A DNA stretch of 36,507 bases, from the IMG/VR virus record IMGVR_UViG_3300047321_000299. One strand, given 5' to 3'. The notes beneath the pieces were generated by a model. It was not told the DNA's origin. It saw only the letters and a program-made list of their open reading frames with translations, and did no database searches. Shown here piece by piece: positions 1 through 32,278 of the stretch (its first letter is position 1; each line of letters starts with the position of its first letter). This stretch comes from a virus. The position numbers were made by a program, and so were the translations under genes.

Positions 1-127
1 CAGGTTGTAGACCATTTCGACCTGCCAACCGGTCGTGGTTGTGGTCGGCACCCGGGCGCTGAGGGTGGCGGGGTTCTTGATGGTGGGTAGCGCCGAGGAT
101 CCGCCGAGGGTGTCGACGGCGGCCCAA
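1..127. repeat. Terminal overlap, copy 1 (identical to 36381-36507)
   Basis: Base-by-base comparison shows 127/127 identity. The repeat lies inside one continuous reading frame. Confidence 0.95.
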
Positions 128-1284
128 TCGACCCCGGTCAACTGCAACGGCTTCACACCGCGCACCGGGCTGTACGCGCTGGCGATGGCGGCGGGGCCCT
201 CCTCCATCGGCCAGTACGCGAGCAGGGCCGGGGCGGACGGGATACGGCGGCGCAGCGTCGAGCTGAGGCCCTTCTGCCCCTGGCCCATCCTGCGCGTCAC
301 CCCGGCCGCCTCGATCGGCACCCACACGTCACGGCCGGACACGTCCCACCGCGGGGGCCAGGTGCTGACCTCGCCGGTGAACCGGTACTCGCGGTCGCTG
401 ATCGCGGCCGCACTGCCGAGGGTCCAGAGACGGCCGGCCGCATCAGTCCATCCGGTCGTGCCGGGGGTCAGTGCCCGGGTGTCGAGGGCGGCGACGACGG
501 GGCCGTCGATGCCGTTGCGGACCTCGGCGCGGTGCACCCTGCCTGTCAGGGGAGCTACCCCCGACGCGGCGATGGGGGCGACCTCCAGCGGCGGGGTACC
601 GGCGAACACGCTCGTGACGCCTGCGGCCGTGAACGGGACATCGATCATGGTCCAGGGGCCGTCCATCGACGGTGCCCAGTACATCGTTGCGGTGAATCCG
701 CCGGCCCCGTTGTTGACGTCCAGGACGGCGCGCAGTGCGGCCCGCCGCGGCAGTGCGGGCAGGGGCCGAGAGACGAACAGGGTGGCGCTCCCGGCCGTCG
801 ACCAGTTGAGCGTCAGCCACCCGGGTTCGAGGCGCAGCAGGTAGCACCTTTGGTTGGCCGTCGAGTCCCACTTGCCGATCAGGGACTGACTCTGGACAGC
901 GGTCCAGTCCTCGGCCGTTGCTTCGACTCGTAGGTCGAGGTCGCCGACGATGTCGAGCGCGGCGACGTCCGGCGTGCGGGCGTACGACGATGTGGAGCCG
1001 TCCAGGGCGAGGTACGACTCGGGACCGGGCACGGATACCCGCAAGGGTGTGTTGCGGCCGATCAGCCCGTAGTAGGGCGACATGGGGTTGCGCGGGCTGT
1101 ACTTCCCGCTGCGGTTGTTGAGGCTCATCGAGCAGCGCGACGGGTCGGTCGTGGATGCCTCGTCGGCCGCTCCCCGATCGATGGTGATCGGGTCGCGGGT
1201 GAACGTGTCGCGGGTGATGTCGACCCACGTCGAGGCGACCTGAATTTCGGTCCGCACGTCCAACGGAGTATTCGGGAACGTCAC
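1..1284 (-). CDS. Tail-tip / distal tail (Dit-like) protein, 5' part (about aa 1-386 of a 1,079-aa ORF that continues across the circular junction to 34425)
   Basis: I checked plus-strand triplets 1-3, 4-6 ... 1282-1284 and found no tta/cta/tca, so the minus frame is open over the whole span. GTG at 1284 follows AAAGGGGGG by 5 nt and lies 13 nt after the tape-measure stop. The N-terminus VTFPNTPLDVRTEIQVASTWVDITRD...CSMSLNNRSGKYSPRNPMSPYYG resembles siphophage Dit N-domains. The track omits this ORF because it has no in-window stop. Confidence 0.8.
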   Translation of the reverse strand, partial: MTFPNTPLDVRTEIQVASTWVDITRDTFTRDPITIDRGAADEASTTDPSRCSMSLNNRSGKYSPRNPMSPYYGLIGRNTPLRVSVPGPESYLALDGSTSSYARTPDVAALDIVGDLDLRVEATAEDWTAVQSQSLIGKWDSTANQRCYLLRLEPGWLTLNWSTAGSATLFVSRPLPALPRRAALRAVLDVNNGAGGFTATMYWAPSMDGPWTMIDVPFTAAGVTSVFAGTPPLEVAPIAASGVAPLTGRVHRAEVRNGIDGPVVAALDTRALTPGTTGWTDAAGRLWTLGSAAAISDREYRFTGEVSTWPPRWDVSGRDVWVPIEAAGVTRRMGQGQKGLSSTLRRRIPSAPALLAYWPMEEGPAAIASAYSPVRGVKPLQLTGVDWAAVDTLGGSSALPTIKNPATLSARVPTTTTTGWQVEMVYNL

Positions 1285-1297
1285 GTGTTCCCCCCTT

Positions 1298-3514
1298 TCA
1301 TGCTGCGCCGAATGCGGTCTGTACGGAGCCGCGGCCGTCCACGCGGACCATGCGGCGGATGAGCCGCTTCATGTCGCTGTCCGCGCCGGTGACGTCCAGG
1401 ACGATGCGGCCGCCGCCCACCGCGCCGCCCGATGCCCTGCCGGCCTGCGCTGCTACTGCGGCGGCCGTGGCCGCGCCCGGGGTGGGCACGGACACCAGGT
1501 TTCGCATGGTGCGATCGATGACGCCTGCGTTGTCCTCGGCGCCTTGGGCGATACCGGCCGGGATCCACTGGCCGACCTGATCGGCGAGTACGCGCGACGG
1601 CGAGTGGATGCCGAGGGCGTCCGCGATAGGCCCGGGGATCATTGACTTGGCGAATGACATCAGCTGCGAGCGCAGCCATGAGCCCATCGACTGAACGCCG
1701 TTGAGCAGGCCGCGGATAAGGTCGCGGCCCTTGTCGGCCAGGAGCGTGTTGAGATTCCCGATCGCGCTCATGATGCGGCCGGGCAGACCACGCACCCACC
1801 CGATGAAGTCGGTCACCTTCGTCGCGGCCATGGTCCGAAAGGCGGTGAAGCCCTTACGGGCTGCGCCGGCCAGGGATACGCCGAGGCCTGCGAGGGCCAT
1901 CACTGCGCGGTTGGGAAGGCCGACCAGCCACAGCACCAGGCCGACGAACTTTTCGATGGCCCAGTCTGCTGCCTGCCCGAACCAACCGGCGAGCATCGCT
2001 GGCAGTCCGGCGAACCAATTGATGGCGATGGCGATTCCGGCGATGGCCGTGGAAATGACGGCCTGTATCGCGCCCCATGCGGTCTGCACGATGTTCCGGA
2101 AAGTCTCGCTGTGCTGGTAGGCGAGGATGATCACGGCGATAAGGCCGATGATCGCGCCGATGATGAGCACGATGGGGTTGGCAGCCATAACGGCGTTGAA
2201 GATCGCCTGTGCGACGGTCCACACGCCCATGGCCGTGGCCACGCCGATGACGACACCGGCGAGCGGGCCGATCACGGCAATGTTCTTCGTGACGTACTTG
2301 GCGAACACTTCGAGGATGGGCACGACGGTGTTGCCGAGCAACTCGACGAACCCTTGCGTAAACCCGCGCTTGAGCTGCTCGATGCGCGCCCCGGCCGTCT
2401 CGTGCAGGCTCTTGCCGAGCCGGTCCGTTGCCCCTGCGGCCTTGTCCATGCCGGACGATGCGGCCGCGGTTGCCGGGTCCAGCGCGAACAGGGCCTCGCC
2501 CATGACGGTGCCCGGGTCGCCGAACAGGGCAGTGGCGGCGTTGAGCTTGACTGTCTCGTCTTTGGTGCCGCGCAGTGCGTCGAGGGTCTGCTGTAGGGCC
2601 TCCTCGGCGCTGCTGCCGCCCTTGCCGATCTTCTGTGCCATCGTGTCGGCGTTCAGCCCGATGGAGGCGAACGCCTCCTGCACGCCCGTGCTGCTCGACA
2701 GGGCGAGCTCGCCGAACTGCCCGATGGCGTCGGCGACCTGGTCGCTGTCGCGCGCACCCGCTTTCACGGCCTGGTCGATCAGGCCGAGGGCCGTCTGTCC
2801 GTCGAGGCCGACGCGCCGGAACTGCGTCGAGTACTCGTTGAACGTCTCCAACAAGTCGTCCGCTTTGTTGGCGCTGGTCGTGAAGCCTGCCGCGAGGATG
2901 TCGAACGCTTCATTGGCGCTCGATGCGAGGCCGGTGCGCAGCATCTGCGACACGGCGTTCGTCACACCGCCGAGCTCCTGGTCGAACGTGCCCGCGAGGT
3001 CGGCGACCTTGGTCGAGATGGACTGAATCTGTGCGTTGGTGGCGCCCGGCGGGAGCAGGCCGGAACCCATGGTTGCTTGGATGGTGTCCGCGGCGGTCTG
3101 GAAGTCCTCGGTGATCGCGTTCGCGTACAAGTCGCCTGCGATCTCTCCCAGCCGCTTCGCTTCGGCCGGCGTCTTGCCGAGCTGCGCGCCGAGCTTCGCC
3201 GTGATCTGCTGCTGTTCGACGGCTTGGGCCACGCCTTCCATGAGCGCCGCGCCGATGCCTGCGCCGATGGTCGCGGCGGCGAATCCGCGCAGCTTGCTCC
3301 CCATGCCCTCGACGGCCTGGTCGGCGCCGTCCTCGGCGCCCTCGGCGAGGCCGTCGCCGAGGGCCTGGCCGGAGTCGCGGCCGATGTCGCCCGCGTCGGA
3401 CACGGCGCGGTCTCCGGTGGTTCTGAGGCGCCCCTCGAACCGGCGCAGTCCGGCGGCGCCCTGGCTGTCGTCGACACTGATCGTTGCGGCGAGCTCGCCC
3501 ACTTGAAGCGCCAT
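1298..3514 (-). CDS. Tape measure protein (738 aa)
   Basis: This is the longest ORF directly downstream of the G/GT chaperones. It has an Ala/Gly-rich helical N-half and a cluster of hydrophobic helices (VIGPLAGVVIGVATAMGVWTV, IIGAIIGLIAVIILAY, LVLWLVGLP). An AAGGAGGTG Shine-Dalgarno (SD) sequence lies about 8 nt upstream of the ATG. Confidence 0.85.
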   Translation of the reverse strand: MALQVGELAATISVDDSQGAAGLRRFEGRLRTTGDRAVSDAGDIGRDSGQALGDGLAEGAEDGADQAVEGMGSKLRGFAAATIGAGIGAALMEGVAQAVEQQQITAKLGAQLGKTPAEAKRLGEIAGDLYANAITEDFQTAADTIQATMGSGLLPPGATNAQIQSISTKVADLAGTFDQELGGVTNAVSQMLRTGLASSANEAFDILAAGFTTSANKADDLLETFNEYSTQFRRVGLDGQTALGLIDQAVKAGARDSDQVADAIGQFGELALSSSTGVQEAFASIGLNADTMAQKIGKGGSSAEEALQQTLDALRGTKDETVKLNAATALFGDPGTVMGEALFALDPATAAASSGMDKAAGATDRLGKSLHETAGARIEQLKRGFTQGFVELLGNTVVPILEVFAKYVTKNIAVIGPLAGVVIGVATAMGVWTVAQAIFNAVMAANPIVLIIGAIIGLIAVIILAYQHSETFRNIVQTAWGAIQAVISTAIAGIAIAINWFAGLPAMLAGWFGQAADWAIEKFVGLVLWLVGLPNRAVMALAGLGVSLAGAARKGFTAFRTMAATKVTDFIGWVRGLPGRIMSAIGNLNTLLADKGRDLIRGLLNGVQSMGSWLRSQLMSFAKSMIPGPIADALGIHSPSRVLADQVGQWIPAGIAQGAEDNAGVIDRTMRNLVSVPTPGAATAAAVAAQAGRASGGAVGGGRIVLDVTGADSDMKRLIRRMVRVDGRGSVQTAFGAA

Positions 3515-4265: not shown

Positions 4266-4745
4266 TTACGTGGCGGGGTTGGTGATCTCGGTCGGCGCGC
4301 CGTGGCCGGTGAGCGTGACCTTGATGGACTCCAGCTCTTCGGAGTCGCCACCCTCGGGCTCCCACGTCACAAGCGCGAGCCCCTCCCAGTTGTCGCCGTC
4401 GCGGCCGTCGCGGTCGTACCACCGCACGTGCACGTACGACAGGGCGCCGAACGAACGGCCCGCGAGGCGGAGCTTTTCCTGAGCGGCGTTGAACGCCTTG
4501 GTGGTGGGGTGCGCCCGGCGCAGGAACGTTGCCTCGGCCGACCATGTGAGCTTGGTGCGGGTGACCTGTCCCCATCCGTCCGACCCGTAGTCGGTGGAGT
4601 CCTGGTCGGTCGGCTCGATTTTCGGGGCGAACTCGGACATGCCCGGGACGACGGCCCATGAAGGGGTGCCGGTCGCCGACAGGTCGATTTCCAGCCGGTA
4701 GCGGCGGGCGAGCAGGGTTGCGGACTCGGCGGCGATGTCAGCCAC
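4266..4745 (-). CDS. Major tail (tube) protein (159 aa)
   Basis: Assigned from its position between the connector genes and G/GT. A GAGAGGAG SD lies upstream and the size is typical. No sequence-specific motif was recognised. Confidence 0.65.
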   Translation of the reverse strand: MADIAAESATLLARRYRLEIDLSATGTPSWAVVPGMSEFAPKIEPTDQDSTDYGSDGWGQVTRTKLTWSAEATFLRRAHPTTKAFNAAQEKLRLAGRSFGALSYVHVRWYDRDGRDGDNWEGLALVTWEPEGGDSEELESIKVTLTGHGAPTEITNPAT

Positions 4746-4759
4746 GGTGTCGGCTCCTC

Positions 4760-5191
4760 TCAGTCAAGGTTGGGATGCGCCCGGTTGGCGCGGATGGTGT
4801 AGTTGCTGGTCCGCTCGAACCGGCCGGTGGTGTCGGCTCCGAGCGAGGCGGCCGAGGCGCGGTAGATGAGCGCGACGGGGTGGCCGTTGAGGTCGAGCGG
4901 CCCGGCGGCGTGCAGTACCGCGAACACCTGGTCGTCGAGGGCGGCGACGTCGCGCGGGTCCTGGCCGGCGCGGGTGCGGACCTGCACGGAAACGGTGGTG
5001 TCGGTGACGGCGGCAGACTCGGTTCCCGCGTAGGCGGTCAGGCAGATGACGCGGTCGGGGGCGTCCGGCATCACCGTGTCAGTGATGGCGGTCTCTCCTG
5101 CGGCGTAGATGCCATCGGGCCGGTACGTCCCGGCGCCGTTCGCGGCGAGCAGCTGGGCGAGGCCGTCGACGACGTCGACGAGAAAGCTCAC
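4760..5191 (-). CDS. Tail terminator / tail completion protein, putative (143 aa)
   Basis: GTG 5191 forms a GTGA overlap with the upstream stop. The internal start was chosen because the track ORF N-terminus is Arg/Pro junk. Function is assigned by position only. Confidence 0.55.
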   Translation of the reverse strand: MSFLVDVVDGLAQLLAANGAGTYRPDGIYAAGETAITDTVMPDAPDRVICLTAYAGTESAAVTDTTVSVQVRTRAGQDPRDVAALDDQVFAVLHAAGPLDLNGHPVALIYRASAASLGADTTGRFERTSNYTIRANRAHPNLD

Positions 5192-5538
5192 CGCAGTGCC
5201 CTCCGTACCTGTGCGGCGATGAGCGCGGTTGCCGTGTCGGCCTCCTCGATGAGAGGCCGTTCGAGGTACTTGGCGGTGCGCCCGGCGTCGTGCTGGTAGT
5301 TCAACTCTTCGTGCTGGCGCACCGCGTACGGGGTGTCGTACGACACGGCGGCGGTGAGGTTCGCCTCGTCGACGGTGGCGACGCCTGAGCGTTCGAGGGT
5401 GGCCTCCTCGATCGGCACCCGTCCGCGCGATACGGCGAGGACGTGCTCGGCGGCGAGGCGTAGGCCGAGGGCGGAGCCCTGGCGCATGGCGGCGAGGGCT
5501 ATGTCGCCGTCCCATCGGATGGGACCGGACTGCGTCAC
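5188..5538 (-). CDS. HK97 gp10-like head-tail joining protein, putative (116 aa)
   Basis: GTG 5538 forms a GTGA overlap. The segment ...AAVSYDTPYAVRQHEEL... resembles the conserved core of the gp10 family. Confidence 0.55.
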   Translation of the reverse strand: MTQSGPIRWDGDIALAAMRQGSALGLRLAAEHVLAVSRGRVPIEEATLERSGVATVDEANLTAAVSYDTPYAVRQHEELNYQHDAGRTAKYLERPLIEEADTATALIAAQVRRALR

Positions 5539-5855
5539 TCGCACATCACCTCCGTACAGGCGGGCACCGGGAGGCCCGGCGCGGTGTGCTGCGCGTTGCT
5601 GATCACGACGGTGGTGCGCCCGTCCGGCAGGGTGACGCGTGAGCCGGTCGGGCAGTCGAGGCCGGGGGCGGCGATGATCTGCGCGGTGGAAACGACCTCG
5701 GCGCCCGTCGCGTCGCGTGTCCGCTTGATGGTGCTGGCGACCATGGCGGGCACGTCCGCGACGGGCGGCCCGTAGCGGGGCCCGTACGCCCCTACGCCGA
5801 GGTAGGGCTCGATGGTGATCCGGTGGCGCAGCAGCCATGCGGGTACGGCGGTCAC
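5535..5855 (-). CDS. Head closure / head-tail adaptor protein, putative (106 aa)
   Basis: GTG 5855 forms a GTGA overlap with the upstream stop. Function is assigned from position in the connector block. Confidence 0.5.
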   Translation of the reverse strand: MTAVPAWLLRHRITIEPYLGVGAYGPRYGPPVADVPAMVASTIKRTRDATGAEVVSTAQIIAAPGLDCPTGSRVTLPDGRTTVVISNAQHTAPGLPVPACTEVMCE

Positions 5856-6235
5856 CAGATCACCCCCGGCAGGAGTCCGGCGCGCCGTAGGGCTCGGTCG
5901 GCGCGCGGGGCGATGTCGACGTCCCCCGCCCCGCGCGGTGCGTCCTTGCGGCCGGACAGGGCTACCGGGCCGATGCTGACGGAGTCCCATCGGCCGGCCG
6001 CGCCGGTGCCGTCGTCGCCGGTCGCCCGCTGGTACTCGACCTGCGCGCACGTCGCCTCACTGAGTGCGGCGACGATGGCGGGATCGGTGGGCATGCCCTC
6101 GACGTCGGTGCAGTAGACGGCCGTGCGCAAGGCGTCGTCGACGTCCTGCGAGGCGCGTGTCAGCAGCCGTTCGGCATCGGCCGGGGCGGGCTGGCCGGTG
6201 TAGGCGGCGAGCTCCTCGGGCGTCGCGTACACCAT
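5852..6235 (-). CDS. gp6-like head-tail connector protein (127 aa)
   Basis: The N-terminus MVYATPEELAAYTG... and the size are typical of the phage gp6-like connector family. It is the first gene of the connector block. Confidence 0.6.
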   Translation of the reverse strand: MVYATPEELAAYTGQPAPADAERLLTRASQDVDDALRTAVYCTDVEGMPTDPAIVAALSEATCAQVEYQRATGDDGTGAAGRWDSVSIGPVALSGRKDAPRGAGDVDIAPRADRALRRAGLLPGVIW

Positions 6236-6248
6236 GGCCGCGCCCCCC

Positions 6249-6590
6249 TTACCTGGTCTCTTCGATCAGCCCGGCGGTGACCGAGGCGGCCGCGGACCAA
6301 TCGCAGTACACGTATCCGTCGGTCTGGAGTGCCTCCGGGCCCTCGGGGATGTACGCGGTGGCGGACGCGGCGACGGACACGACACGGTCGGGCACGGCCA
6401 GACCAGCGACGCGGCTGTTGCTACGAATGGTGACCGTGACGGCGCTCGCCGCACCGTTGCGGACGATCAGCCGGCGGCGGCCGGTGTAGCGCCACTGGTT
6501 GCCGTTGGTGCCGTCCGCGGCGGTCAGCGTGATGGCGGCGAGCGGTGCGCCTGCGGACACCGACTGTGCGACGAACTCAGTTCGAGGCAT
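6249..6590 (-). CDS. Hypothetical head-associated protein (113 aa)
   Basis: The ATG has an AGGAGG SD about 10 nt upstream, and third codon positions are strongly G/C. The sequence looks beta-rich. It lies between the capsid and connector genes. Confidence 0.7.
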   Translation of the reverse strand: MPRTEFVAQSVSAGAPLAAITLTAADGTNGNQWRYTGRRRLIVRNGAASAVTVTIRSNSRVAGLAVPDRVVSVAASATAYIPEGPEALQTDGYVYCDWSAAASVTAGLIEETR

Positions 6591-6780
6591 CGGCGGTCAC
6601 CTCCTGGTGCTCGTTCTTCTGGCGGGTACGGGAACGCCCCGCGGGCTTGGCCTGCGGGGCGTCGTGGTCCGGCTCGGGTTCCGGCTCGGCCGGGGTGTCC
6701 GACGGGGTGTCGGACGGGTCCGGCGCGGTGTCCGACGGAGTGTCGGACGCCTCGGCCTGGTGGTGGCGGCGCAGCAGCAC
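6577..6780 (-). CDS. Small acidic low-complexity protein with SDTP repeats (67 aa)
   Basis: GTG 6780 lies 7 nt after GGAAGGAGGG. The ORF is in frame with the 3' end of track ORF 6577..7155 and has high GC3. It contains SDTPSDTAPDPSDTPSDTP, encoded by a 23-bp direct repeat. Confidence 0.5.
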   Translation of the reverse strand: MLLRRHHQAEASDTPSDTAPDPSDTPSDTPAEPEPEPDHDAPQAKPAGRSRTRQKNEHQEVTADASN

Positions 6781-6800
6781 GGCGGCGCCCTCCTTCCTGA

Positions 6801-7658
6801 TCAGGTGGTGGCGAGGGTGCCGACGCACACACCGCGGTCGTTGAGGCGCTTGACGGCGTAGTGCATGGTCGTGGTGACGACGGTCGAGCGGGCGAGGATG
6901 TCGCGGTCCGACTCGACCAGCGGGCGCCGCTTGTAGAGCAGGCCAAGCGCGTTGTTCTTGAGCAGCAGAAACTTGCCCGCGGTGATCCGGTTCGTGATGA
7001 ACACGGGCACGCCACCGATCCGGCCGATAGAGCCGGTCACGGCCGCGGACGCACCGTTGCCGAGCTTCGCCGCGTCGACGAACTGCGCGTCGGCCATGGC
7101 CTCGGCGAGCTGAACGCTGTTGAGGTACAGGCCGGCGAAGTCGGACGGCTCCCACTCGTCGCCGAACTGGCCGATGGCGGGCACCATCGAGTCAGCCCAC
7201 GTGAACTTGGTCTTGCCCGTGGCGGTGGTGAACGCGAACGGAGTGCCGCCACCCTGCGCGGTCTCGTTGGCCTGCGCCTGAGCGATCAGCGCCGCGTCGA
7301 CCTTGCGGGCGGCGAGGATGCCGAACTGGCGGCGGGCCTCGGCCTCGGGGTCGCCGAGGGAGGTAAGGCGGGCCTTGTCCGTGATCTCGACCGCCTTACC
7401 GGCCTCCTTGATCGTGGCCGTGGCGTCCGCCGTCGACATGGCGGTCGGGGTCATCGCCGTGGTCTCGGTGAGGTCGTCGAGGTCGCCGATCGCCCCCCAC
7501 TTCGGGAAGTTGACGGTGTCGCCGGGGGCGCCCTCAAGGGTGTTGTCCTCGATGACGGCGGCCGATCCGGCGACGCGGACCTGTCCGACGAAAGACGCCT
7601 GCGCCATGTCGCCCCACACCTCGGGGTTGATCACAGCGGCTGCGGTGGTCTGAGCCAT
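6801..7658 (-). CDS. Major capsid protein (285 aa, no delta domain)
   Basis: It sits immediately downstream of the scaffold gene. A GGAGAGAG SD lies upstream. The size and composition fit a scaffold-dependent HK97-fold capsid protein. Confidence 0.8.
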   Translation of the reverse strand: MAQTTAAAVINPEVWGDMAQASFVGQVRVAGSAAVIEDNTLEGAPGDTVNFPKWGAIGDLDDLTETTAMTPTAMSTADATATIKEAGKAVEITDKARLTSLGDPEAEARRQFGILAARKVDAALIAQAQANETAQGGGTPFAFTTATGKTKFTWADSMVPAIGQFGDEWEPSDFAGLYLNSVQLAEAMADAQFVDAAKLGNGASAAVTGSIGRIGGVPVFITNRITAGKFLLLKNNALGLLYKRRPLVESDRDILARSTVVTTTMHYAVKRLNDRGVCVGTLATT

Positions 7659-8737: not shown

Positions 8738-10951
8738 TCATCTCCGGTTCTGGTGGTCGGACTCATTCTTACGGGCACCGGATGCCCACCGCTGGGCTTG
8801 GCCGGTGGCCTTCTCGATGAACTCGGCCTGCGTCATGCGGCCGTGTTCGGCCCACCACTCTTTCAGCTCGTCCGACGCGTTCGCGTGGGCGATGCGTGCC
8901 GGGCCAGAGAACAGGGTTATGGGTGCTCGGCCGGCCGCTGCTGCCTTCTTGCTGAGCAGCACACCGCGTAGGTCTTCCTCGGCTTGCAGGTACTGCCGGT
9001 AGATGTACTCGTCGTACAGCTCGCGGGCCTGCCTGCGGGTCAGGAGGGGTGCCGCCTCGGCGGCCTCGGCTCCTCCTGCCTCGGCGACGGCTTCGGCGAG
9101 CTGCTCGGCGAACGCTGCGTCGTCGGCGAGGGCGCCCCACCCTTCCGGGTCGGGGGCGGGGTCCATCGCTTCGGCGAGCGCGTTGCGGTCGGCGAGCAGG
9201 TCGTCGACGGCGTTGCCGGTCGCGGCCGGGTGCGGGAGGTCGACGGCGTCGCGGCTGTCCATCTCCCCCGCAATGCGCAGGATCTCGTCGGGGTGGGCGT
9301 ACTGCATGCACCATGCGAGCTCGTCGTCGCCGACCTGGTCGAGGTCGGCCCGCAGCTCGCCGCTGGGGAAGTGCTGGGCGAGCAGGTCGCGGCGGTGTGC
9401 CTCGGCGGCGAGGGCGTCGCGGTCGGCCGGTGCGTCGCGGTAGCGGGCGGCGAGCTGGTCGTCGGACAGTCCGTGGAGATCGCGGCGCGCCCCGGGGAGT
9501 TGTCCGGCGCGGTCGCGGCGGTCCAGCTCGGACATGACGCGTAGCGCGTCGCTGTCGTCGAGGTGGCCGAACACTTTGCCGAGCTCCTGGTCGGACAGTC
9601 CGAGCAGGTCGTCGGTAAGGCGGCCGCCGGGGGCGGCGCGGTCGAGCAGGGCCTGTTGGTCGCGGCGGTCGGCCTCGGTCTCGATGCGGGCGCGGTCGCG
9701 TTCGGTGAGCTCACCGTGTCGCATGGCGGCTGTCAGCTCGTCGTCGCTCATCTCCCGTGGGGTGAGGTCGTCGCCGGATCGGATGCGGGCGGCCTGCTGT
9801 GCCTCCTCGGGGACCGGGCGGCGAGCAGGGGGGAGGTTCGAGGCACCGGGCTGCTCGCGCTTGGGGTTGCGGCGTAGGTCGGGGTGGGCGGCGAGGTGCT
9901 CGCGCTGGGCGCCCTGCCACTGCCTGACCTTGGCCTCGGCCGCGCGCTTGGCCTCGGGGGAGGTGGCGGCCGCGGCGCGGTTCTTGTGCTTTCGGATGTT
10001 GCGTTCGATGGCGCGCTGCCGTTGGCCGGCCTCGTATCCGTCGGGGTCGCTCTCGGCGTCCTCGGTGCGGGTGAGCCCCGGGGTGTACGCCGATACGGAG
10101 TGACGGCAGTTGGGGTGCTGGAATCCGGCGCGGCGGGCCTCGTCGAGCGATCCGGCGACCCTGACGGGGACCATGCGCCCGTCCTCGATGGCGTGCTCGG
10201 CCTCGACGGTGCGGGCTCCCTCGGCGCCGCTGATCGCCAGTACCTTGCCCTCCCACGGGCGGCACAACGGGCACTCGCGCGGTGCGTTGGACACCACTAC
10301 GAACTGCACTCCGGCCGTGTCCAACGTGCGCATGTGGGCCTCGGTGGCGGCGCGCCCGACGCTGGTGCGCACCGCCATTTCCGCGTACGACGTGAGCTGC
10401 CAACGGCGGCCGGCGCGGTCGCGAAAGCCGGTGATGCCCTCGTCGGCGAACCGGCGCATGGCGTCCTGCGTGGCCTGGCGGCGCGTGCCGGTGCCGAGCA
10501 GGGGCGTGGCGGTGACCTCGGCGACGATGCCGCGGTACCGGTCGTCGACGGCCCGCAGAATGCTGCGGTGGGTCGCGGTGATCCGGTCGACGGTCTCTTG
10601 TGCGAGGCGGTCGACGGCCTGCGCGTTCGGGGTGACGTCGTCGACCAGGCGGCGGGCGTCATCCGACAGTGCGCCGAGCTCGGCGACGGCGGAGCGGTGC
10701 CCCACGTTGTACGCCTCGGCGACCACGTCGAACACTTCCAGCGTGGTCGCCTTGCCGAGCTCGCCGACAACGGCCTGCGAGGCGCGGCGTACGGCCTGCA
10801 CGGCGGACAGCTTCCGCTCGACCCATCCCGGGGCGTCGAGGCCGTCGGCGAGCTGGCGGGCGATGATGCCCAACAGGCGCTGCTCGGCCTGCTCGTACAG
10901 GTCGCGGGTGCCGGTGGCGAGGTCCTCGACCATGCCCGGATGGATCGCCAC
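8738..10951 (-). CDS. MuF-like (SPP1 gp7 family) minor head protein with a 350-aa-plus C-terminal extension (737 aa)
   Basis: The core ...RRWQLTSYAEMAVRTSVGRAATEAH...VVVSNAPRECPLCRPWEGKVLAI... is the Phage_Mu_F signature. GTG 10951 lies 7 nt after TAAGGAGGG. The 83 aa further upstream in the track ORF overlap the portal gene and are Pro/Arg/Ser junk. Confidence 0.85.
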   Translation of the reverse strand: MAIHPGMVEDLATGTRDLYEQAEQRLLGIIARQLADGLDAPGWVERKLSAVQAVRRASQAVVGELGKATTLEVFDVVAEAYNVGHRSAVAELGALSDDARRLVDDVTPNAQAVDRLAQETVDRITATHRSILRAVDDRYRGIVAEVTATPLLGTGTRRQATQDAMRRFADEGITGFRDRAGRRWQLTSYAEMAVRTSVGRAATEAHMRTLDTAGVQFVVVSNAPRECPLCRPWEGKVLAISGAEGARTVEAEHAIEDGRMVPVRVAGSLDEARRAGFQHPNCRHSVSAYTPGLTRTEDAESDPDGYEAGQRQRAIERNIRKHKNRAAAATSPEAKRAAEAKVRQWQGAQREHLAAHPDLRRNPKREQPGASNLPPARRPVPEEAQQAARIRSGDDLTPREMSDDELTAAMRHGELTERDRARIETEADRRDQQALLDRAAPGGRLTDDLLGLSDQELGKVFGHLDDSDALRVMSELDRRDRAGQLPGARRDLHGLSDDQLAARYRDAPADRDALAAEAHRRDLLAQHFPSGELRADLDQVGDDELAWCMQYAHPDEILRIAGEMDSRDAVDLPHPAATGNAVDDLLADRNALAEAMDPAPDPEGWGALADDAAFAEQLAEAVAEAGGAEAAEAAPLLTRRQARELYDEYIYRQYLQAEEDLRGVLLSKKAAAAGRAPITLFSGPARIAHANASDELKEWWAEHGRMTQAEFIEKATGQAQRWASGARKNESDHQNRR

Positions 10952-10964
10952 GGCGGCACCCTCC

Positions 10965-12449
10965 TTACATGGGGAACGTGCCGACGGGGTCGGGTGCGCC
11001 TGCGCCGGTCTCGGCGAGGATCGCGGCGGCCTCGGCGGCGACGGCGGTGTCGTCCCAATCCGGGTGCAGGATCTTGACCTTGGTGCCGGTCGACACGGCG
11101 CCCGCCCGGTTGAGCAGGTCGAGGGTCGTGGCGGTGGCCTGCTCGGACTCCGCGACGCCGTCGCCGAACTCGACGCGCGGCCGCTCCGGCTTGATCGCAC
11201 GGTTGCCGAACAGGGCGGCGTCCAGTTGCAGCATGACGTGCAGCATGTCGGCGAGCGGGTGCCGCCAATAGCCGGTCTTCTTCTTCCGGGTCACCATCGA
11301 CCGCTGATCGCGGCTGTCTACCTCGGTGGCGGTGACGGCCTGGCCCTCGCCGTCGAGGCCGAGAGACTGCGCCGAATAGCCGGCCGACTGCGCGGCCTGG
11401 CGCACGATCGCCTCGACGGTGGCGCGGTGCTCCTCCACCCGGATCGCGAACTGCGACAGGGTGATTGAGTTGCCCTGCTCGGTGGGCGGGATGTTCAGCT
11501 GTTGGAAGACCTCGCGGTCGTCGTCGAAGCTGGCGCCCTCGCCGCGGCCGTTGCTGCGCAGGTAGGCGTCGGGAACGATCAGGCGGGCGCGGGCGAGGCG
11601 AATGTCGCGCATCCACGACGTCCACGTCTCGTCGAGCGCGTCGAACAGGTCGTGAACGCCACCCGCGTAGTCGCTGCGCCCGACGGGGCTGTCTCGGTGC
11701 AGCCGGTTGGGCAGCATGTTCGGCACGTAGGCGGCGGTGAGGTCGCGGATACCCGTGCTGATCGTCTGCCCGTCGCCGTCCTTGTCGAGGGACTCGATAA
11801 GGCCTGTGGTGTCGGGGTGCGCGGTGAGCGGCACAAGGCGGCCGAGGCTGTCCGGTGCGCCCTCGTACAGGCCGTGGCGGATACTGCCGCTCTCGTGCCG
11901 TTCGAGGTGCCGGTAAACGGTCTGCGTGGTGCTGCCGCTCAGCTCACGCCAGAACGTGACGGCGCGCAGCATCCCGAACCGGAACTCCGGTACGGCGCGG
12001 TCCGGCTGCATGACGGTGAGTAGGGGCCGCTCGGCGAGTTCGCGGTCCCAGGTCACGCGCAGGAACACACCGCTAAGGGCGGCGGCCTGCTCGGCTGCTC
12101 CGAGCAGCACCTGTTGCACGCGGCCCTCATCGATGAGCACCGCGAGGCGGTCCTGTGTGGCCGTGTTCTCGACGGTCAGGACGGGCATGGTGGCGAACAA
12201 CAGGTCGGCGCTGGTGCTGGCGATGTCGCCCGGCAACGGGACGTGCAGGCGGTGTTCGCGCTTGTGCGGGTGCTGGATGCGGCGGCGGCCCCATAGCGTC
12301 CGGCGCTCGTTGTGGTGCTGCGCGTGCCCGTAGACGCGGGCGAGGCGGCGGCGGTCGCCGGAGTACCACGCGTCGTCGACGCGCATCTCGGCATAGATCG
12401 GGGCCCACTGCGGGGGCGGCCACGCGGTGCCGTTCTCAGGCAGTGCCAC
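10965..12449 (-). CDS. Portal protein (494 aa)
   Basis: Size, position between terL and MuF, and overall composition all fit a portal. GTG 12449 lies 9 nt after GAGGAGG and is preferred over the TTG at 12467. Confidence 0.85.
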   Translation of the reverse strand: MALPENGTAWPPPQWAPIYAEMRVDDAWYSGDRRRLARVYGHAQHHNERRTLWGRRRIQHPHKREHRLHVPLPGDIASTSADLLFATMPVLTVENTATQDRLAVLIDEGRVQQVLLGAAEQAAALSGVFLRVTWDRELAERPLLTVMQPDRAVPEFRFGMLRAVTFWRELSGSTTQTVYRHLERHESGSIRHGLYEGAPDSLGRLVPLTAHPDTTGLIESLDKDGDGQTISTGIRDLTAAYVPNMLPNRLHRDSPVGRSDYAGGVHDLFDALDETWTSWMRDIRLARARLIVPDAYLRSNGRGEGASFDDDREVFQQLNIPPTEQGNSITLSQFAIRVEEHRATVEAIVRQAAQSAGYSAQSLGLDGEGQAVTATEVDSRDQRSMVTRKKKTGYWRHPLADMLHVMLQLDAALFGNRAIKPERPRVEFGDGVAESEQATATTLDLLNRAGAVSTGTKVKILHPDWDDTAVAAEAAAILAETGAGAPDPVGTFPM

Positions 12450-12666
12450 GGGTGCTCGCCTCCTCAAATGGGATGTGCACGGTGGTGGTCAGTACGTCGT
12501 CGCCGTGGGTGATGCGGCGGCCCTCGCGGTCGCGGACGTACAGCAGGGCGCGCACGCCGTCGTCAACGTCCAGGTGCACGCTGCGCACAAGGGACGGCGG
12601 CAGGCCGAGGGCACGGCACACGGTGCGGACCTGCTCGGTACTCAGGGCGACAGGGATGTCGGTCAT
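12436..12666 (-). CDS. Hypothetical protein (76 aa)
   Basis: ATG 12666 forms an ATGA overlap with the terL stop, and GC3 is high. Confidence 0.6.
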   Translation of the reverse strand: MTDIPVALSTEQVRTVCRALGLPPSLVRSVHLDVDDGVRALLYVRDREGRRITHGDDVLTTTVHIPFEEASTRGTA

Positions 12667-24947: not shown

Positions 24948-25667
24948 TTACTGCTCGGCGGGGGCGAGGGCGGGCAGCACGATCGGGGCGAGGTCCCCGC
25001 GGCGCCACGCCTGGGCGACCAACTCGCGGCCGTCGACGGGCGACGACTTCGACGTGCGAGAGAACGTCATGCGGTGCGAGCGGGCGCGGCTGGGCCGGAT
25101 CTCGACTCCGGGCACGTCGTGGACCTCGCCCGTTTCCGGGTCGGCCCACTGCGTCACACCGGCCGCGGTCATCGCGGCGAGCATCAGCGAACTGAATGCC
25201 GGTCGCACGGACTTGACGATTTCAATCGTGGTCTCGGCCGGGTACGCCTCGGCGACCCATGCCCGAAACGCTGCGGCGTCGATGATCTGCGCGGCGGTCT
25301 CGCCACTGGTCCGGCTGATGGAACCGACCTTGGTGCCGTCCGGCAACGTCGCGTCGACCTTCGTCGTGCCGGTCGCCTCGTACTGCTGGTCGAGCAGGTA
25401 CTGAACGTCCGTCTTCGCGGCGGCGAGGGCCTCGCCGATCTCCTTGGACAGCGCGGCGAGGACGGCCTCGCGGGTAACGGCCTCACGGACGGCGGCCCGG
25501 TTGGCGGCGGCCCGCTCGGCTGCGGCGCGCTCGATCTGCTCGGCGGTCGGCTCCTGCTCGCCCTGCTCGGCGCGCTCGGCGGCGGCGAGGCGGGCGAGGC
25601 CGAGGCGCTCAACGATGGTGTCTTCGTGGTGCTTGTAGATCTGCTCGGCGAGGGTCTGCTCGGTCAT
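24948..25667 (-). CDS. Hypothetical recombination-module protein (239 aa); weak resemblance to Mu Gam-like architecture
   Basis: ATGA overlap with the erf stop. It has an N-terminal coiled coil and a C-terminal domain (..LPDGTKVGSI...GEVHDVPGVEIRPSRARSHRMTF). The Gam-like idea rests on architecture only. Confidence 0.7.
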   Translation of the reverse strand: MTEQTLAEQIYKHHEDTIVERLGLARLAAAERAEQGEQEPTAEQIERAAAERAAANRAAVREAVTREAVLAALSKEIGEALAAAKTDVQYLLDQQYEATGTTKVDATLPDGTKVGSISRTSGETAAQIIDAAAFRAWVAEAYPAETTIEIVKSVRPAFSSLMLAAMTAAGVTQWADPETGEVHDVPGVEIRPSRARSHRMTFSRTSKSSPVDGRELVAQAWRRGDLAPIVLPALAPAEQ

Positions 25668-26719
25668 GCGGTCGCCCCGTTCTGGCGGGCGGCGTCGAGC
25701 AGGTCGTCGCGCAGGGCGCGCAGGGCGGCGGTGGTCGCGGCCTGCGGTGCCGTCTTGTGGTGGGTGACCATGACGGCGTCGGCTTCCTCGCGGGTGAGGC
25801 CGGCGGACTTGGCGGCGTCGTACATCTCGCCGAGGGCGGCGGCGTGCTCCTGGTCCTCGACGACACCCGCGGCGGGGGCCTGCTGCTGCCGCTGCGGCTT
25901 GTTCGCGGCGGCCTGCTTCTGCGCGGCCACGGCGTCGAGGCTGGCGAGGTATTCCGGCGGCGCCCCGGCGGCGACGGCATCGGCGCGCACCTTGGCGAAC
26001 GCCTGCGGGCTGGGCGCGGCGGTCGCCTCGGCGAGGTAGTCGCGGCTCGGGGCCTGCTGTGCCGGGTCGGGCCCGCCACGGTTGGGGCGCTGCTGCCGCC
26101 CGTTCTGCGGGCGCTGCTGGTTGCGCTGCTGCCCGTTCTGCTGCCGCTGGTTGCGGCGCTGCTGGTTCTGCTGCCGCTCGGCGCGGTGCTCCTCGGACAC
26201 GGGGTGTTCGCGGTCGCCGTCGTCGATGCTGCGGCCGTCCACAGGCAGCATGAACAGGGTGAACAACAGGTACTTGAGCGCCGCGGACTGAGCCTTGTTC
26301 GTCGCCTTGTCCGCAAAGTCGAACGCCTCGCCCGGCACAGTCGCGATCAGGCAGTCACCCGCGGGCCCGTAGATGCGATACCGCATCATGATCATGGTCC
26401 GCGTCATCTTCCCGTCGCGGTCCTGCTTGTGGCTGGCGATGCTCGGCAGGATGAACACGCCGTGCGTCCGCATCGGCCCGGCCATGGCCGACATGACGTC
26501 GTCGATACCGCGGAAGTTGTAGTTCTGCTGCGTGTTCTTCTGGTCCTTGCCCACGGGCATCGCATCCCGCATGACGCCACCGATCGCAACGAAGACGCGC
26601 GGGGCGTCCGCGGGGGCGCCCTCGGGTGCGGGCTCGTAAGTGACCTCGACGGCGGGCAGGTTGGCGGACGGCATCGGCGCGGCGGGCGAGTATCCGGGGT
26701 GCAGTGCGGTGACGGTCAT
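25664..26719 (-). CDS. erf: ERF-family single-strand annealing protein (351 aa)
   Basis: VGKDQKNTQQNYNFRGIDDVMSAMAGPMRTHGVFILPS matches the ERF core pattern. A Gln/Arg-rich low-complexity linker follows. Confidence 0.8.
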   Translation of the reverse strand: MTVTALHPGYSPAAPMPSANLPAVEVTYEPAPEGAPADAPRVFVAIGGVMRDAMPVGKDQKNTQQNYNFRGIDDVMSAMAGPMRTHGVFILPSIASHKQDRDGKMTRTMIMMRYRIYGPAGDCLIATVPGEAFDFADKATNKAQSAALKYLLFTLFMLPVDGRSIDDGDREHPVSEEHRAERQQNQQRRNQRQQNGQQRNQQRPQNGRQQRPNRGGPDPAQQAPSRDYLAEATAAPSPQAFAKVRADAVAAGAPPEYLASLDAVAAQKQAAANKPQRQQQAPAAGVVEDQEHAAALGEMYDAAKSAGLTREEADAVMVTHHKTAPQAATTAALRALRDDLLDAARQNGATA

Positions 26720-28664: not shown

Positions 28665-28991
28665 GTGTCATCACGCACAACCCTGTACCTGACTGCCGCG
28701 CTTTCCGCCGGACTTCTCTTGATCGGCCTCACCATCCTGATCACCGGTGTACTCACGGACAGACGGGTCGGGTTGGTCATCCAGACCGGTACCACCACGA
28801 CCGCCATCGGCGTCATCGCCACCGTGGTCAACGGCTACCGGGCACTGAACGAATACATCACGTCACGCGTGGCGCACGCCGACAGCGCCGCACTCGTGAA
28901 GGCCATCGTTCAGCACGACGCCCAATTCACCGCGCCGAGCACCGTCGTTGAGTTCGACGCGGCACGACGTCAACGGGAGAACGCAACGTGA
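28665..28991 (+). CDS. Two-TM membrane protein in the lysogeny module (108 aa)
   Basis: GTG 28665 lies 8 nt after GGAAGG. The TM helices are LYLTAALSAGLLLIGLTILITGVL and TTTAIGVIATVV. About 20% of codons end in A/T, versus far fewer in neighbouring phage genes. Confidence 0.7.
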   Translation: MSSRTTLYLTAALSAGLLLIGLTILITGVLTDRRVGLVIQTGTTTTAIGVIATVVNGYRALNEYITSRVAHADSAALVKAIVQHDAQFTAPSTVVEFDAARRQRENAT

Positions 28992-30610
28992 CAGCAGGAC
29001 CAACTCAGCACGTGCCAAGCACGTTCCAGGGCTTGCCGACCGATGAGGACGGCGAGCCCTGGCTCGGTTATATCCGGGTGAGCACGTGGAAAGAGGAGAA
29101 GATCAGCCCCGAGCTGCAAGAGGCAGCCCTACGGGCGTGGGCAAAGCGCACCGGGCGCCGCCTGCTCGAACCGTTCATCACCGACCTCGACGCCACCGGC
29201 CGGAACTTCAAGCGGCGCATCATGGGCGCCATCAAGCGCGTTGAGGACGGCGAGGCGCGCGGCATCGCCGTATGGAAATACAGCCGCTTCGGCCGCAGCC
29301 GCGACGGTATCGCCGTCAACCTCAAACGCCTTGAGGACGCGGGCGGGACGCTGGAGTCTGCGACCGAGGAGGGCGACGCGCGTACGGCGACCGGCCGACT
29401 GCAACGCGGGATCCTGTTCGAGTTCGCGGCATATGAATCCGACGTGCGCGGCGAGCAGTGGAAGGAGACCCATGACCACCGCCGCTACAAACTGCACCTG
29501 CCCGCCACCGGCCGCCCCCGCTTCGGCTACATCTGGCACCCCCGCCGACTCCCCGACGGCCGCGGGGGCTGGACCACGCAAGAGGAGAGATACCTAGCCG
29601 ACCCGAAAACGGGGCCAGTCATGGCCGACCGATACCGGCAGTACACCGACGGAGACGCGTTCTATTCGCTCGTCGGCGAGCTCAACGCGGCCGGCCACCG
29701 GACGGTACGCGGCGGGCTGTGGTCCGAACAGACACTGATCCGGTACATGGACTCCGGATTTGCCGCAGGCCTGCTCCGCATCCATGACCCAAAGTGCCTG
29801 TGCAACCCAGAGACGCGCAACAACTGTCAAAACTGCCTGTTCGTCCCTGGGGCGCAAGAGGAACTGATCGATGCCGAGCTGTGGCAGCAGTACCGCGACC
29901 GCCGCGAGGAGGTGCGGAACACACCGCCGCGGGCCCGCCGTGCCACGTACATGCTGACCAACCTTGTCCGGTGCGGGCAGTGCCGCGGCACGACGCCCGC
30001 GAACTCTGCCGTGCGCGTCATCAACGACGTTCCGACCAACGTCCTCGGCTACTCGTACACATGCGGCCGGCGGGCGGTACAGGCCGCCCACGGCTGTGAC
30101 GGAGTATGGGTCAAGCGCGAAGACGTCGAGGCCGAGGTGTTGAAGTGGCTCGCCAAGGAGGCCGCCCCCGGAATCGACACCGCGCCGAGCATCCCTCAGC
30201 AGCGCATCGAGCAGCGCGACCACCGCGCCGCCGCCGCGCTCGACCGTGCCAGGCTGCAAGCCGAGGTCGACAAACATGCCGCCGCCCTCGCCAACCTGCG
30301 GGCCCAACGCGCAGCCGACCCGGACGAATTCGAGCCGGGCGAGTATGAGGCCGCCCGCGATCTCATCCGGAAGAAGCAGGCGGCGACGCAGGCCGCATTG
30401 GAACGGGTCTCTACCGTCGAGACCACCCCGCACCGCGCCGACTATGTGCCTCTGCTGGTCGGCACGGTCGCGGAGTGGCCGACGCTGGACACGCGCGGGA
30501 GAAACGGCCTACTCAAGCAGCTTGCGCGACGGGTGGCACTGGTACGCACCGAGGACGGCACAAAGGTCGTGGTGCATCCTGTGTGGGAGCCGGACCCGTG
30601 GGCCGAGTAG
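28988..30610 (+). CDS. int: Large serine recombinase (integrase, 540 aa)
   Basis: It has a resolvase-type N-domain (GYIRVSTWKEEKISPELQ..., GIAVWKYSRFGRS, RLQRGILFEFAAYES). It also has a recombinase domain, a Cys cluster (CGQCRG...CG...C) and a C-terminal coiled coil. The start forms a GTGA overlap with the upstream gene. Confidence 0.9.
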   Translation: MTAGPTQHVPSTFQGLPTDEDGEPWLGYIRVSTWKEEKISPELQEAALRAWAKRTGRRLLEPFITDLDATGRNFKRRIMGAIKRVEDGEARGIAVWKYSRFGRSRDGIAVNLKRLEDAGGTLESATEEGDARTATGRLQRGILFEFAAYESDVRGEQWKETHDHRRYKLHLPATGRPRFGYIWHPRRLPDGRGGWTTQEERYLADPKTGPVMADRYRQYTDGDAFYSLVGELNAAGHRTVRGGLWSEQTLIRYMDSGFAAGLLRIHDPKCLCNPETRNNCQNCLFVPGAQEELIDAELWQQYRDRREEVRNTPPRARRATYMLTNLVRCGQCRGTTPANSAVRVINDVPTNVLGYSYTCGRRAVQAAHGCDGVWVKREDVEAEVLKWLAKEAAPGIDTAPSIPQQRIEQRDHRAAAALDRARLQAEVDKHAAALANLRAQRAADPDEFEPGEYEAARDLIRKKQAATQAALERVSTVETTPHRADYVPLLVGTVAEWPTLDTRGRNGLLKQLARRVALVRTEDGTKVVVHPVWEPDPWAE

Positions 30611-31404: not shown

Positions 31405-31513
31405 AGCACTCCCCTGGTGATCAGCCTGTCACTTTTCGTGATGCTGAGTATTCAGCTTCGACCTGATGGGTTAGCTTTGTCAACGTCGACGGACAATGCT
31501 CGGAGCTGCGCAT

Positions 31514-32278
31514 ATGCCACGGGAAACGCCCTACTTGCAGGTGGCCGACGCTCTGCGCGCCCGCATCAAAGGCGGCGAGTGGGCGGTAGGCGACAAGCTG
31601 CCCAGCCGCGCACGGTTCGCCGAGGAGTACAACGTCGGCCAGTCCGTTGCCCAGCGCGCGATGGAGCGCCTGATCATCGAGGGCATCCTCGAAGGCCGCG
31701 CCGGATCCGGCACGTACGTCCGCCGGCCACGCGAACGCCTGCGCATGGTCCGTTCCCGTCACCGCGAACGCCGCGGCGGGTCCCCGTTCCGTGCCGACAT
31801 GAAAGAGCAGGGCCGCGCTGGCACATGGGAGTCGCGCAGCGCAGCCCGCACCCCAGCACCGGCACACATCGCGGAACGGTTGGCCATCGAACCGGGCGAC
31901 CTCTGCGTCGTGACGAATTACGAGTTCCTTGCCGACGGCCTCCCTGTCCAACTCTCCGAGAGCTGGGAGCCGATGGCCATCACGGACGGCACCCCGGTCG
32001 TGCTGCCCGAGATGGGCCCGCACGCGGGTGCTGGCGTGGTGGAACGCATGCGGTCAATCGGCGTCATCATCGAGACCGCCGTCGAAGTGCCGCGCCCGGC
32101 CCGCGCGTCGCAGGAACAGGCCAACCTCCTCGGCATCTCGGTCGGCGACCTGATCACTGAAGTCGAGCGAACCTACTACGCCACCGACGGGCGACCGGTC
32201 GAGACCGCAGACATCGTCGTACCCGATATCCGGTGGGAGATCGCTTACGAGATCGGCATCGACCAGCCCGACGCCTGA
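31514..32278 (+). CDS. GntR-family transcriptional regulator, HutC/UTRA subfamily (254 aa)
   Basis: The wHTH is YLQVADALRARIKGGEWAVGDKLPSRARFAEEYNVGQSVAQRAMERLIIEGILEGRAGSGTYV. The C-terminal 170 aa fit a UTRA-type effector domain. ATG 31514 has a GGAG 9 nt upstream and is preferred over ATG 31496. Confidence 0.8.
   Translation: MPRETPYLQVADALRARIKGGEWAVGDKLPSRARFAEEYNVGQSVAQRAMERLIIEGILEGRAGSGTYVRRPRERLRMVRSRHRERRGGSPFRADMKEQGRAGTWESRSAARTPAPAHIAERLAIEPGDLCVVTNYEFLADGLPVQLSESWEPMAITDGTPVVLPEMGPHAGAGVVERMRSIGVIIETAVEVPRPARASQEQANLLGISVGDLITEVERTYYATDGRPVETADIVVPDIRWEIAYEIGIDQPDA

Follow-up and report, generated by a model that had tools for sequence, protein, structure and literature searches.

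A gp27-like tail-tip hub with three lectin-type modules predicted in a temperate actinophage lacking a recognisable Dit gene

A baseplate hub predicted from the core fold

The virus record IMGVR_UViG_3300047321_000299 of IMG/VR, a stretch of 36,507 nucleotides (nt) referred to below in its entirety as the window, has as its largest tail gene a reading frame for a protein of 1,079 amino acids (aa), located directly after the gene for the tape measure protein (TMP). Structural modelling indicates that this protein is quite probably one gp27-like baseplate hub (BHP/Tal) bearing three lectin-type modules, and not the fusion of Dit and Tal proposed in a first-pass annotation, which had seen a siphophage Dit in the N-terminus. 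The gene is ordinary and intact and belongs to a known but unannotated family, although its domain architecture is unusual, and the one point that merits follow-up is the family-wide lack of a Dit at the canonical position.

The full-length protein was modelled with AlphaFold2 at a predicted local distance difference test score (pLDDT) of 79.9. Because matches to the LamG and carbohydrate-binding (CBM) modules swamped the Foldseek search of this model and left the core unidentifiable, a 478-aa core construct was modelled from which both LamG domains and the CBM had been excised, with full-length homologues as the other rows of the alignment (pLDDT 71, predicted template modelling score 0.70). 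All 50 PDB matches of the core model with E ≤ 0.001 were hub, spike, VgrG or Tal chains, aligned over 400–600 columns, and none was a Dit. The top match was the MuSo2 43-kDa protein 3CDD (E 1e-11, template modelling (TM) score 0.61–0.64 on the target), with further matches to Mu gp44, T4 gp27, VgrG-type spikes of contractile injection and type VI secretion systems and the HFTV1 hub, and, among siphophages, to Listeria gp18 (3GS9), the Tal proteins of 80alpha and NF5 and the baseplate of mycobacteriophage Douge. The predicted core fold is similar to T4 gp27, Mu gp44, 3CDD, 3GS9, 80alpha Tal and Douge with E-values of 1e-11 to 7e-5 and TM-scores on the target of 0.55–0.66, and the genes of these gp27-like hubs likewise neighbour a tape measure gene. 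The window protein differs from them in sequence (8–15% identity, with no Pfam or NCBIfam match), in having two LamG domains of ~200 aa in and after domain 1, and in the absence of a preceding Dit gene.

The gp27/gp44 layout comprises two tube-like domains with an alpha/beta domain between them, and a Dit comprises an N-terminal tube-like belt domain and a C-terminal galectin-like domain in a stand-alone protein of ~100–450 aa. In the core model, a tube-like domain is followed by an alpha/beta domain and then by beta domains; for this order to fit the gp27/gp44 layout, the N-terminal domain has to be hub domain 1, and we therefore assign it as such. Taken alone, residues 560–887 (~330 aa) begin with the alpha/beta domain and are too short for a whole hub. 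A tube-like N-terminal domain followed by a sandwich of the ConA superfamily is indeed present in the AlphaFold2 model, but the tube-like domain models within the hub fold. The N-terminal domain and the conserved block behind the jelly rolls model together as a single hub fold, and neither the Dit-like N-terminus nor the fusion of Dit with Tal is upheld. Pfam models pointed the same way: Sipho_tail (PF05709), which had been put forward as a check, and SPP1_Dit (PF22768) gave no match at E ≤ 0.1 to the whole protein, and the Pfam Dit models gave none even at E ≤ 10 to the excised N-terminal domain, LamG1 or LamG2, while the same library found SPP1_Dit in gp17 of Streptomyces phage Tubberson (E 3e-8). 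The gene does lie where a Dit gene would be expected, directly after the TMP gene (13 nt; 72/72 related loci), but position alone does not define a Dit.

Several observations weigh against the hub assignment. No sequence link to a named hub or Tal family was found in Pfam (for example Prophage_tail and Phage_GPD), NCBIfam or the PDB: the Pfam and NCBIfam searches returned nothing for the whole protein or for five excised domains except a sub-threshold CBM_4_9, and phmmer and two profile searches of the PDB returned chance matches only (ATP synthase delta, DNMT1). What supports the assignment is therefore AlphaFold modelling and Foldseek comparison. The core was modelled as a deletion construct, with low confidence at residues ~668–753, and the place of the N-terminal domain in the hub alignment is deduced from alignment length, TM-scores and domain order. 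The solved siphophage tips consulted have a Dit-type ring between tube and hub for which no gene is detectable here, which leaves the assembly model incomplete. Finally, a single-chain hub is not obligatory, since the homologous region of Thermobifida phage P1312 is divided over two genes, with the break between hub domains 2 and 3.

An intact gene divided by linearisation of a circular contig

Comparison of the window's ends showed that bases 1..127 are an exact copy of 36381..36507, and this 127-bp terminal duplication is the assembly overlap of a circular contig rather than biology. Given this identity, the window is a circular contig with a unique length of 36,380 bp that was opened arbitrarily, in this case within a gene. 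The minus-strand frame that begins at GTG 1284, with AAAGGGGGG upstream and 13 nt past the TGA of the 738-aa tape measure ORF (1298..3514, minus strand), is open to base 1, continues from 36380 and ends at the stop TAG 34427..34425. Read through the 127-bp overlap, it is in phase with the listed open reading frame (ORF) 34425..36431, giving a hub gene of 3,240 nt and 1,079 aa in which codons 1–428 occupy 1..1284 (−) and codons 429–1079 with the stop occupy 34425..36380 (−). The single 1,079-aa polypeptide and the in-phase join described in the first-pass annotation therefore stand.

The G+C content of the hub gene at the three codon positions (GC1/GC2/GC3 0.64/0.58/0.87) follows the same coding pattern as the adjoining phage genes. 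Two other ORFs listed for this region, previously dismissed as junk, are indeed shadows of the hub gene: ORF 443..1228 (−) is out of frame with it and has GC1 0.89 and GC3 0.58, and ORF 35..844 (+) is an antisense frame that shares its wobble position with the real hub frame. A public contig of the Joint Genome Institute, Ga0495603_0000134, matches the rotated window at 100% identity over 15,219 bp, and in it the hub gene lies uncut in mid-contig; the contig's length of 36,547 bp implies that it was circularised or trimmed differently. This contig may share its source population with the window and is evidence of contiguity, not independent biology.

Homologues are colinear with the protein across the junction, without a frameshift. 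Cumberbatch gp18 aligns in one piece to residues 1–1079 at 47% identity, and the homologues P0005–P0008 have 100% coverage at 65–69% identity. A frameshift or stop that would split the ORF was looked for and was found neither in the window nor in the identical public contig nor in the homologue alignments. Since homologue N-termini read M(T/A)FP(T)TPLDVRTE, the start at GTG 1284 suggested earlier is favoured over the TTG 1263 (1,072 aa) of the public gene call. The gene is intact and its apparent cut is an artefact of how the contig is represented. Because the circle was opened inside it, the largest tail gene went unseen in ORF tracks; circular contigs should be rotated by annotation pipelines prior to gene calling.

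Domain anatomy of the hub protein

In the AlphaFold2 model (all coordinates in this paragraph on the minus strand), a beta-rich N-terminal domain comes in two pieces, residues 1–86 (1027..1284) and ~293–351 (232..408), which form the halves of hub domain 1 and are split by a jelly roll of ~200 aa, the first LamG/ConA-like domain (residues ~87–292, 409..1026). A second LamG/ConA-like jelly roll at residues ~352–559 crosses the junction, with its first part (~352–428) at 1..231 and its second (429–~559) at 35988..36380. A linker and hub domains 2–4 follow (residues ~560–887, 35004..35987), comprising an alpha/beta domain, a highly conserved segment of low confidence (~668–753) and beta-rich domains, the last of them small, that run to ~887. 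A sandwich of ~155 aa, the CBM_4_9-like cassette (residues ~888–1043, 34536..35003), is set into a small C-terminal domain, and the conserved C-terminal ~36 residues end in TVVRSVNGITKPQTKGTPVSLAHPTIVAL (34428..34535).

LamG1 is considered an insertion because P1312 ORF21, which lacks it, aligns to residues 8–85 of the window protein at 60% identity (ORF21 residues 203–280) and resumes directly at ~284. In Foldseek searches against the PDB, the full-length model matched tandem LG domains over ~500 columns (laminin LG4-5, E 3e-9; neurexin; Gas6), relatives in BFVD carry the name 'Concanavalin A-like lectin/glucanases superfamily', and the excised LamG domains matched no Pfam model, Laminin_G_3 included. 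The last sandwich matched CBM4-2 and CBM16; Pfam CBM_4_9 (PF02018) fell below threshold here (E 0.011, 16.6 bits against a gathering cut-off of 25.9) and is precomputed on several homologues. The C-terminal cassette is thus likely, on its modelled structure, to have a CBM4/9 fold. The succession noted earlier, namely a LamG/ConA-like insert within the N-terminal domain, a second jelly-roll block that proves to be of LamG type, a conserved minor-tail block and a C-terminal CBM-like module, is accordingly present in that order.

Mean identity among aligned homologues was 63–76% in the hub parts, with the highest value (76%) in segment ~668–753, 52% in LamG2 and 41% in the CBM. The CBM cassette occurs in 21 of the 46 aligned homologues, and its place is taken elsewhere by modules of other lengths or by additional modules; the C-terminal cassette is exchangeable. 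The last ~30 residues of the hub (TVVRSVNGITKPQTKGTPVSLAHPTIVAL) recur at the C-terminus of P1312 ORF22 (L006:7359-10649), and the same motif ends a 568-aa Gamma_PGA_hydro protein encoded beside the hub of a Streptomyces prophage (L007:9777-11483). Variable modules are inserted just ahead of this motif.

A large family without hub annotation

The protein matches the phrog_5313 profile with E 1.4e-276 (residues 1–920 to positions 141–1048 of 1052), a family labelled 'unknown function'. Full-length homologues are encoded by the Streptomyces phages Cumberbatch, Eklok, AxeJC and Ignacio (gp18, 46–47% identity), Dubu (gp16) and phiSASD1 (gp38), and also include Dagobah HUN42_00025 and ShakeNBake gp24, the last annotated 'minor tail protein'. 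These phage proteins share 32–47% identity with the window protein over nearly the full length and occupy the same post-TMP position (the homologue directly follows the tape measure gene in each annotated locus inspected: Cumberbatch, phiSASD1, Dagobah and ShakeNBake), with one or more small ORFs and an endolysin downstream as in the window. They differ in that the nearest protein of a cultured phage is only 47% identical and in the C-terminal cassette, which consists of one CBM in the window protein and of none or several modules in the others. Their public labels are 'hypothetical', 'minor tail protein' or 'carbohydrate binding domain-containing protein', and in no case hub.

More than 1,700 homologues were found, mostly in Streptomyces genomes, along with 440 relatives in IMG/VR, in length classes of ~920, 1080, 1120, 1280 and 1500 aa that differ in the C-terminal cassette alone. 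The single-polypeptide architecture is a family trait that was already present, though unannotated, in databases. The 'unusually compact baseplate' of the first-pass annotation holds as far as the low gene count is concerned, but the trait belongs to a large family with sequenced phages among its members and is not peculiar to the window. The >1,700 'hypothetical' or 'unknown function' proteins of Streptomyces phages and prophages can be annotated as tail-tip hubs, whose exchangeable lectin cassettes are likely determinants of host range.

A further label, 'phosphodiesterase' for phrog_24476, was rejected. Residues 648–817 match P1312 ORF22 and phrog_24476 outside the PhoD phosphatase part, and the phrog_24476 match covers profile positions 424–600, outside the PhoD domain of ORF22. 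It is this PhoD domain, missing from the window protein, that gave the PHROG its label.

Alternative readings of the protein

A true fusion of Dit, Tal and receptor-binding protein, in which the N-terminal domain and jelly roll would form a Dit with a CBM insert (an 'evolved Dit') and the C-terminal half would be Tal-like, is improbable. In its favour, the gene sits where a Dit gene is expected, right behind the tape measure gene, no other Dit candidate was found, and a tube-like domain followed by a ConA/galectin-superfamily sandwich does resemble the Dit layout. The LamG-free core, however, matches whole hubs over 400–600 columns and no Dit at E ≤ 0.001, and residues 560–887, which start with an alpha/beta domain, lack both the length (~330 aa) and the domain order for four hub domains on their own. 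No Sipho_tail or SPP1_Dit signal appeared at E ≤ 10, though Pfam detects the Dit of Tubberson. The P1312 genes bear on this reading in both directions: the gene that follows the TMP gene in that phage encodes the N-terminal part (to residue ~652) as a protein of its own, but this protein includes hub domain 2, which is absent from Dits. A 6:3 stoichiometry of Dit to hub, moreover, is not achievable by one chain.

The same P1312 locus, in which the homologous region is encoded as ORF21 and ORF22 with a 4-nt overlap, raises the alternative that the window ORF yields two or more virion proteins through an internal start, proteolysis or an undetected frameshift. We regard this as very unlikely: the frame is unbroken in the window and in the identical public contig, a single ORF of 900–1,500 aa is found in >100 listed homologues and in 78 of 80 IMG/VR loci, and the split in P1312 falls where a PhoD phosphatase domain, absent from the window protein, has been inserted. 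The least probable of these alternatives is a peripheral fibre, adhesin or secreted lectin whose hub match would be an artefact of the deletion construct. The full-length, undeleted model had already matched 7b5h_AJ and 8kea_A, both of them baseplate chains that contain a hub, the full-length and core models agree in their secondary structure across the core region, and the post-TMP position, typical of tube-closing proteins, is invariant in 72/72 loci; these points stand against the three lectin-type modules, the unknown PHROG function and the Dagobah label, which reads just 'carbohydrate binding domain-containing protein'. The single gp27-like hub thus remains the preferred reading of the protein.

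The gene downstream of the hub

As noted previously, a 130-aa ORF (ATG 34415, 34023..34415 (−)) is the sole ORF between the hub gene and the amidase endolysin; it starts 9 nt after the hub stop, is preceded by a GGAGGAG Shine-Dalgarno sequence and begins MPTAWLPGMIITGDRL. Across the family, the proteins encoded directly 3' of the hub have no sequence relationship to one another beyond their N-terminus and measure 110–550 aa (phiSASD1 gp39 has 528 aa), and nearly all of them start with (W)x(A/P)G(M/Q)x(I/V)Txx(R)L, of which MPTAWLPGMIITGDRL is the window version. The motif [AP]G..[ILVG]T..L was found within ~60 codons of the hub stop in 58/72 loci, compared with 5 of 1,386 control windows; motif-bearing proteins besides that of the window are encoded at L001:9274-9606, L005:10936-11787, L006:10671-11213 and L002:9211-10797. 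The 130-aa protein has five homologues among 5.8 billion proteins and is for this reason not a conserved core component. Mass spectrometry has identified one motif-bearing protein, ORF23 of P1312, in virions (PMC4569894). The shared N-terminal motif is probably a peptide by which exchangeable receptor-binding heads dock, and the 130-aa protein is probably an exchangeable tip or receptor-binding protein and not a Dit. More speculatively, the last ~30 residues of the hub may be the matching module for this peptide.

The missing Dit

A ring of tube-like fold stands between tube and hub in the solved siphophage tips consulted (PMC13252515, PMC13595954, PMC12617516). Mycobacteriophage tips have a 6:6:3 TTP-Dit-BHP core (PMC13252515), the lambda tip has the small gpM in six copies (PMC12617516), the 'simplest' Lactococcus tip still has two DTPs (PMC13595954), and HFTV1 has a pseudo-hexameric trimer between tube and hub (bioRxiv 10.1101/2024.12.09.627619). 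For the hub family, synteny was assessed in 80 IMG/VR loci, 72 of which had enough upstream DNA. In all 72 the hub start lies within −4 to +31 nt (median 11) of the end of an ORF of 536–1,226 aa, and the adjacency of TMP and hub is also seen in a prophage of Streptomyces sp. NBC_00842, in phiAsp2 and in cultured phages. As these ORFs are of TMP size, no room is left for a Dit at the canonical position. Upstream of the TMP gene of the window, only neck proteins, the tube protein and chaperones were found, with no Dit candidate.

The remaining small proteins were considered individually. The 130-aa ORF was judged unlikely to be a minimal, lambda gpM-like Dit, having 5 homologues against >1,700 for the hub and sharing only its N-terminal peptide with the otherwise unrelated 110–550-aa proteins found at that site. 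A 99-aa protein was rejected on account of its 69%-identical homologue in Tubberson, a phage with its own Dit, and ORFs of 127, 106 and 143 aa because all are neck proteins. The idea that one tube protein serves both types of tip was likewise discarded, as the tube protein of Tubberson shares only 28% identity with that of the window and the mosaic changes over upstream of the terminator. The sole small structural ORF without an assigned role is one of 113 aa (6249..6590 (−)) between the capsid and adaptor genes, which looks all-beta and matches phrog_16194, 'tail protein', with E 8.5e-16; it had no tblastn match in phage genomes, no PDB match and no counterpart in Tubberson.

Either a divergent Dit hides in an unrecognised small gene, such as the 113-aa ORF, or the family has none. 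That the tip is Dit-less family-wide, with a trimeric hub docking straight onto the last tube ring, is a tentative proposal that we consider less likely than a hidden Dit. As proposed, it would take in phiSASD1, the phages that resemble Cumberbatch and numerous Streptomyces prophages (>1,700 homologues, most of them in Streptomyces genomes), and the adhesion platform of the Dit would be replaced by lectin modules spliced into the hub and by small proteins plugged in through a conserved N-terminal peptide. A phrase search of the literature for Dit-less siphophages returned irrelevant papers only. If true, a tip of this kind, with a hub and one small protein, would have fewer genes than any other siphophage tip described. 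It would depart from the 6:6:3 tube-Dit-hub core of the solved tips consulted, challenge the universality of that core in siphophages and show reduction of the tip to one decorated protein. Cultured relatives (Cumberbatch, Eklok and phiSASD1) make the Dit question directly testable.

Proposed assembly and comparison with known tips

From the continuous ORF, the sequence family, the fold and domain order, the synteny and the exchangeable C-terminal cassette, a model of the tip can be proposed. The hub would be one gp27-like fold with LamG1 inside domain 1, LamG2 between domains 1 and 2 and the CBM_4_9-like cassette inside the small C-terminal domain. By analogy with solved tips (PMC13252515, PMC13595954), three hub chains may assemble on the C-terminus of the TMP, and a pseudo-hexameric ring of hub domains 1 and 3 would close the tube. 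Segment ~668–753 probably contacts neighbouring subunits and the channel, which would account for its low confidence in a monomer model. The LamG and CBM modules, nine per tip in such a trimer, would face outward and downward and might bind glycopolymers of the host cell wall, while the small downstream protein would use its conserved N-terminal peptide to dock on the hub and would add strain-specific binding. Receptor engagement would then open the hub as a gate through which TMP and DNA leave.

Core tip proteins with inserted CBMs are also known as the 'evolved' Dit and Tal of siphophages of lactic acid bacteria, in which the inserted CBMs take part in adhesion to cell-wall saccharides (PMC7533335, PMC7291167). 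The window protein differs from these in that its modules are of LamG and CBM_4_9 type and are carried by an actinophage hub, with insertion points inside and just after hub domain 1; no earlier description of these insertion points was found in a literature survey that was not exhaustive. The gp44 hub of HFTV1 (953 aa; PDB 9h4p; bioRxiv 10.1101/2024.12.09.627619) is similarly long, has 3CDD as its closest structural relative and a C-terminal carbohydrate/galactose-binding domain, and matches the core model in Foldseek with E 1e-10. HFTV1, however, has its own trimeric, pseudo-hexameric connector gp41 from tube to hub, as well as tail fibres, and a connector gene was not seen in the window phage. 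In P1312, ORF21 is homologous over hub domain 1, LamG2 and domain 2, and ORF22 over domains 3–4, the CBM_4_9 module and the C-terminal motif. The two genes (4-nt overlap; L006 5389-10649) divide the protein between hub domains 2 and 3 and differ further from the window in lacking LamG1, in an extra 200-aa N-terminus on ORF21 and in a PhoD-like phosphatase domain at the start of ORF22.

Genome context

The contig is the genome of a temperate siphophage with a probable Streptomyces or related actinomycete host. Its gene set comprises terminase, an SPP1-like portal, a MuF-like protein, capsid, neck proteins, tube protein, chaperones, tape measure, the 1,079-aa hub, the 130-aa ORF, an Amidase_2 endolysin, a serine integrase and an ERF recombinase. 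The tape measure protein (1298..3514 (−)) is identified by Pfam PhageMin_Tail and TMP PHROGs, and the major tail (tube) protein of 159 aa (4266..4745 (−); NCBIfam tube_lmo2291, phrog_3884) is the ring that the hub must cap. Downstream of the tip genes, the endolysin (Amidase_2 and PG_binding_1) occupies 33028..33957 (−) if the publicly called start is taken, while 34056 is the first start in frame. The temperate lifestyle follows from the genes for a large serine integrase with Resolvase, Recombinase and Zn ribbon domains (28988..30610 (+)), a GntR/UTRA-type regulator between the integrase and lysis genes (31496..32278 (+); Pfam on the public gene call) and the ERF recombinase (25664..26719 (−)).

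A mosaic breakpoint relative to Tubberson (L090) was observed at 4760..7658 (−). The capsid, adaptor, stopper and 99-aa proteins are 69–78% identical to their Tubberson counterparts, compared with 34% for the terminator, 28% for the tube protein and 44% for the TMP, and the whole tip differs as well: Tubberson has a canonical Dit (Pfam SPP1_Dit) and four more tip genes where the window phage has one. In the head region, Phage_min_cap2 (MuF-like) spans only residues 88–436 of an 820-aa ORF (8738..11200 (−)), which continues in a C-terminal extension of ~380 aa; since its listed start runs into the portal ORF (10965..12467), the true start is probably later.

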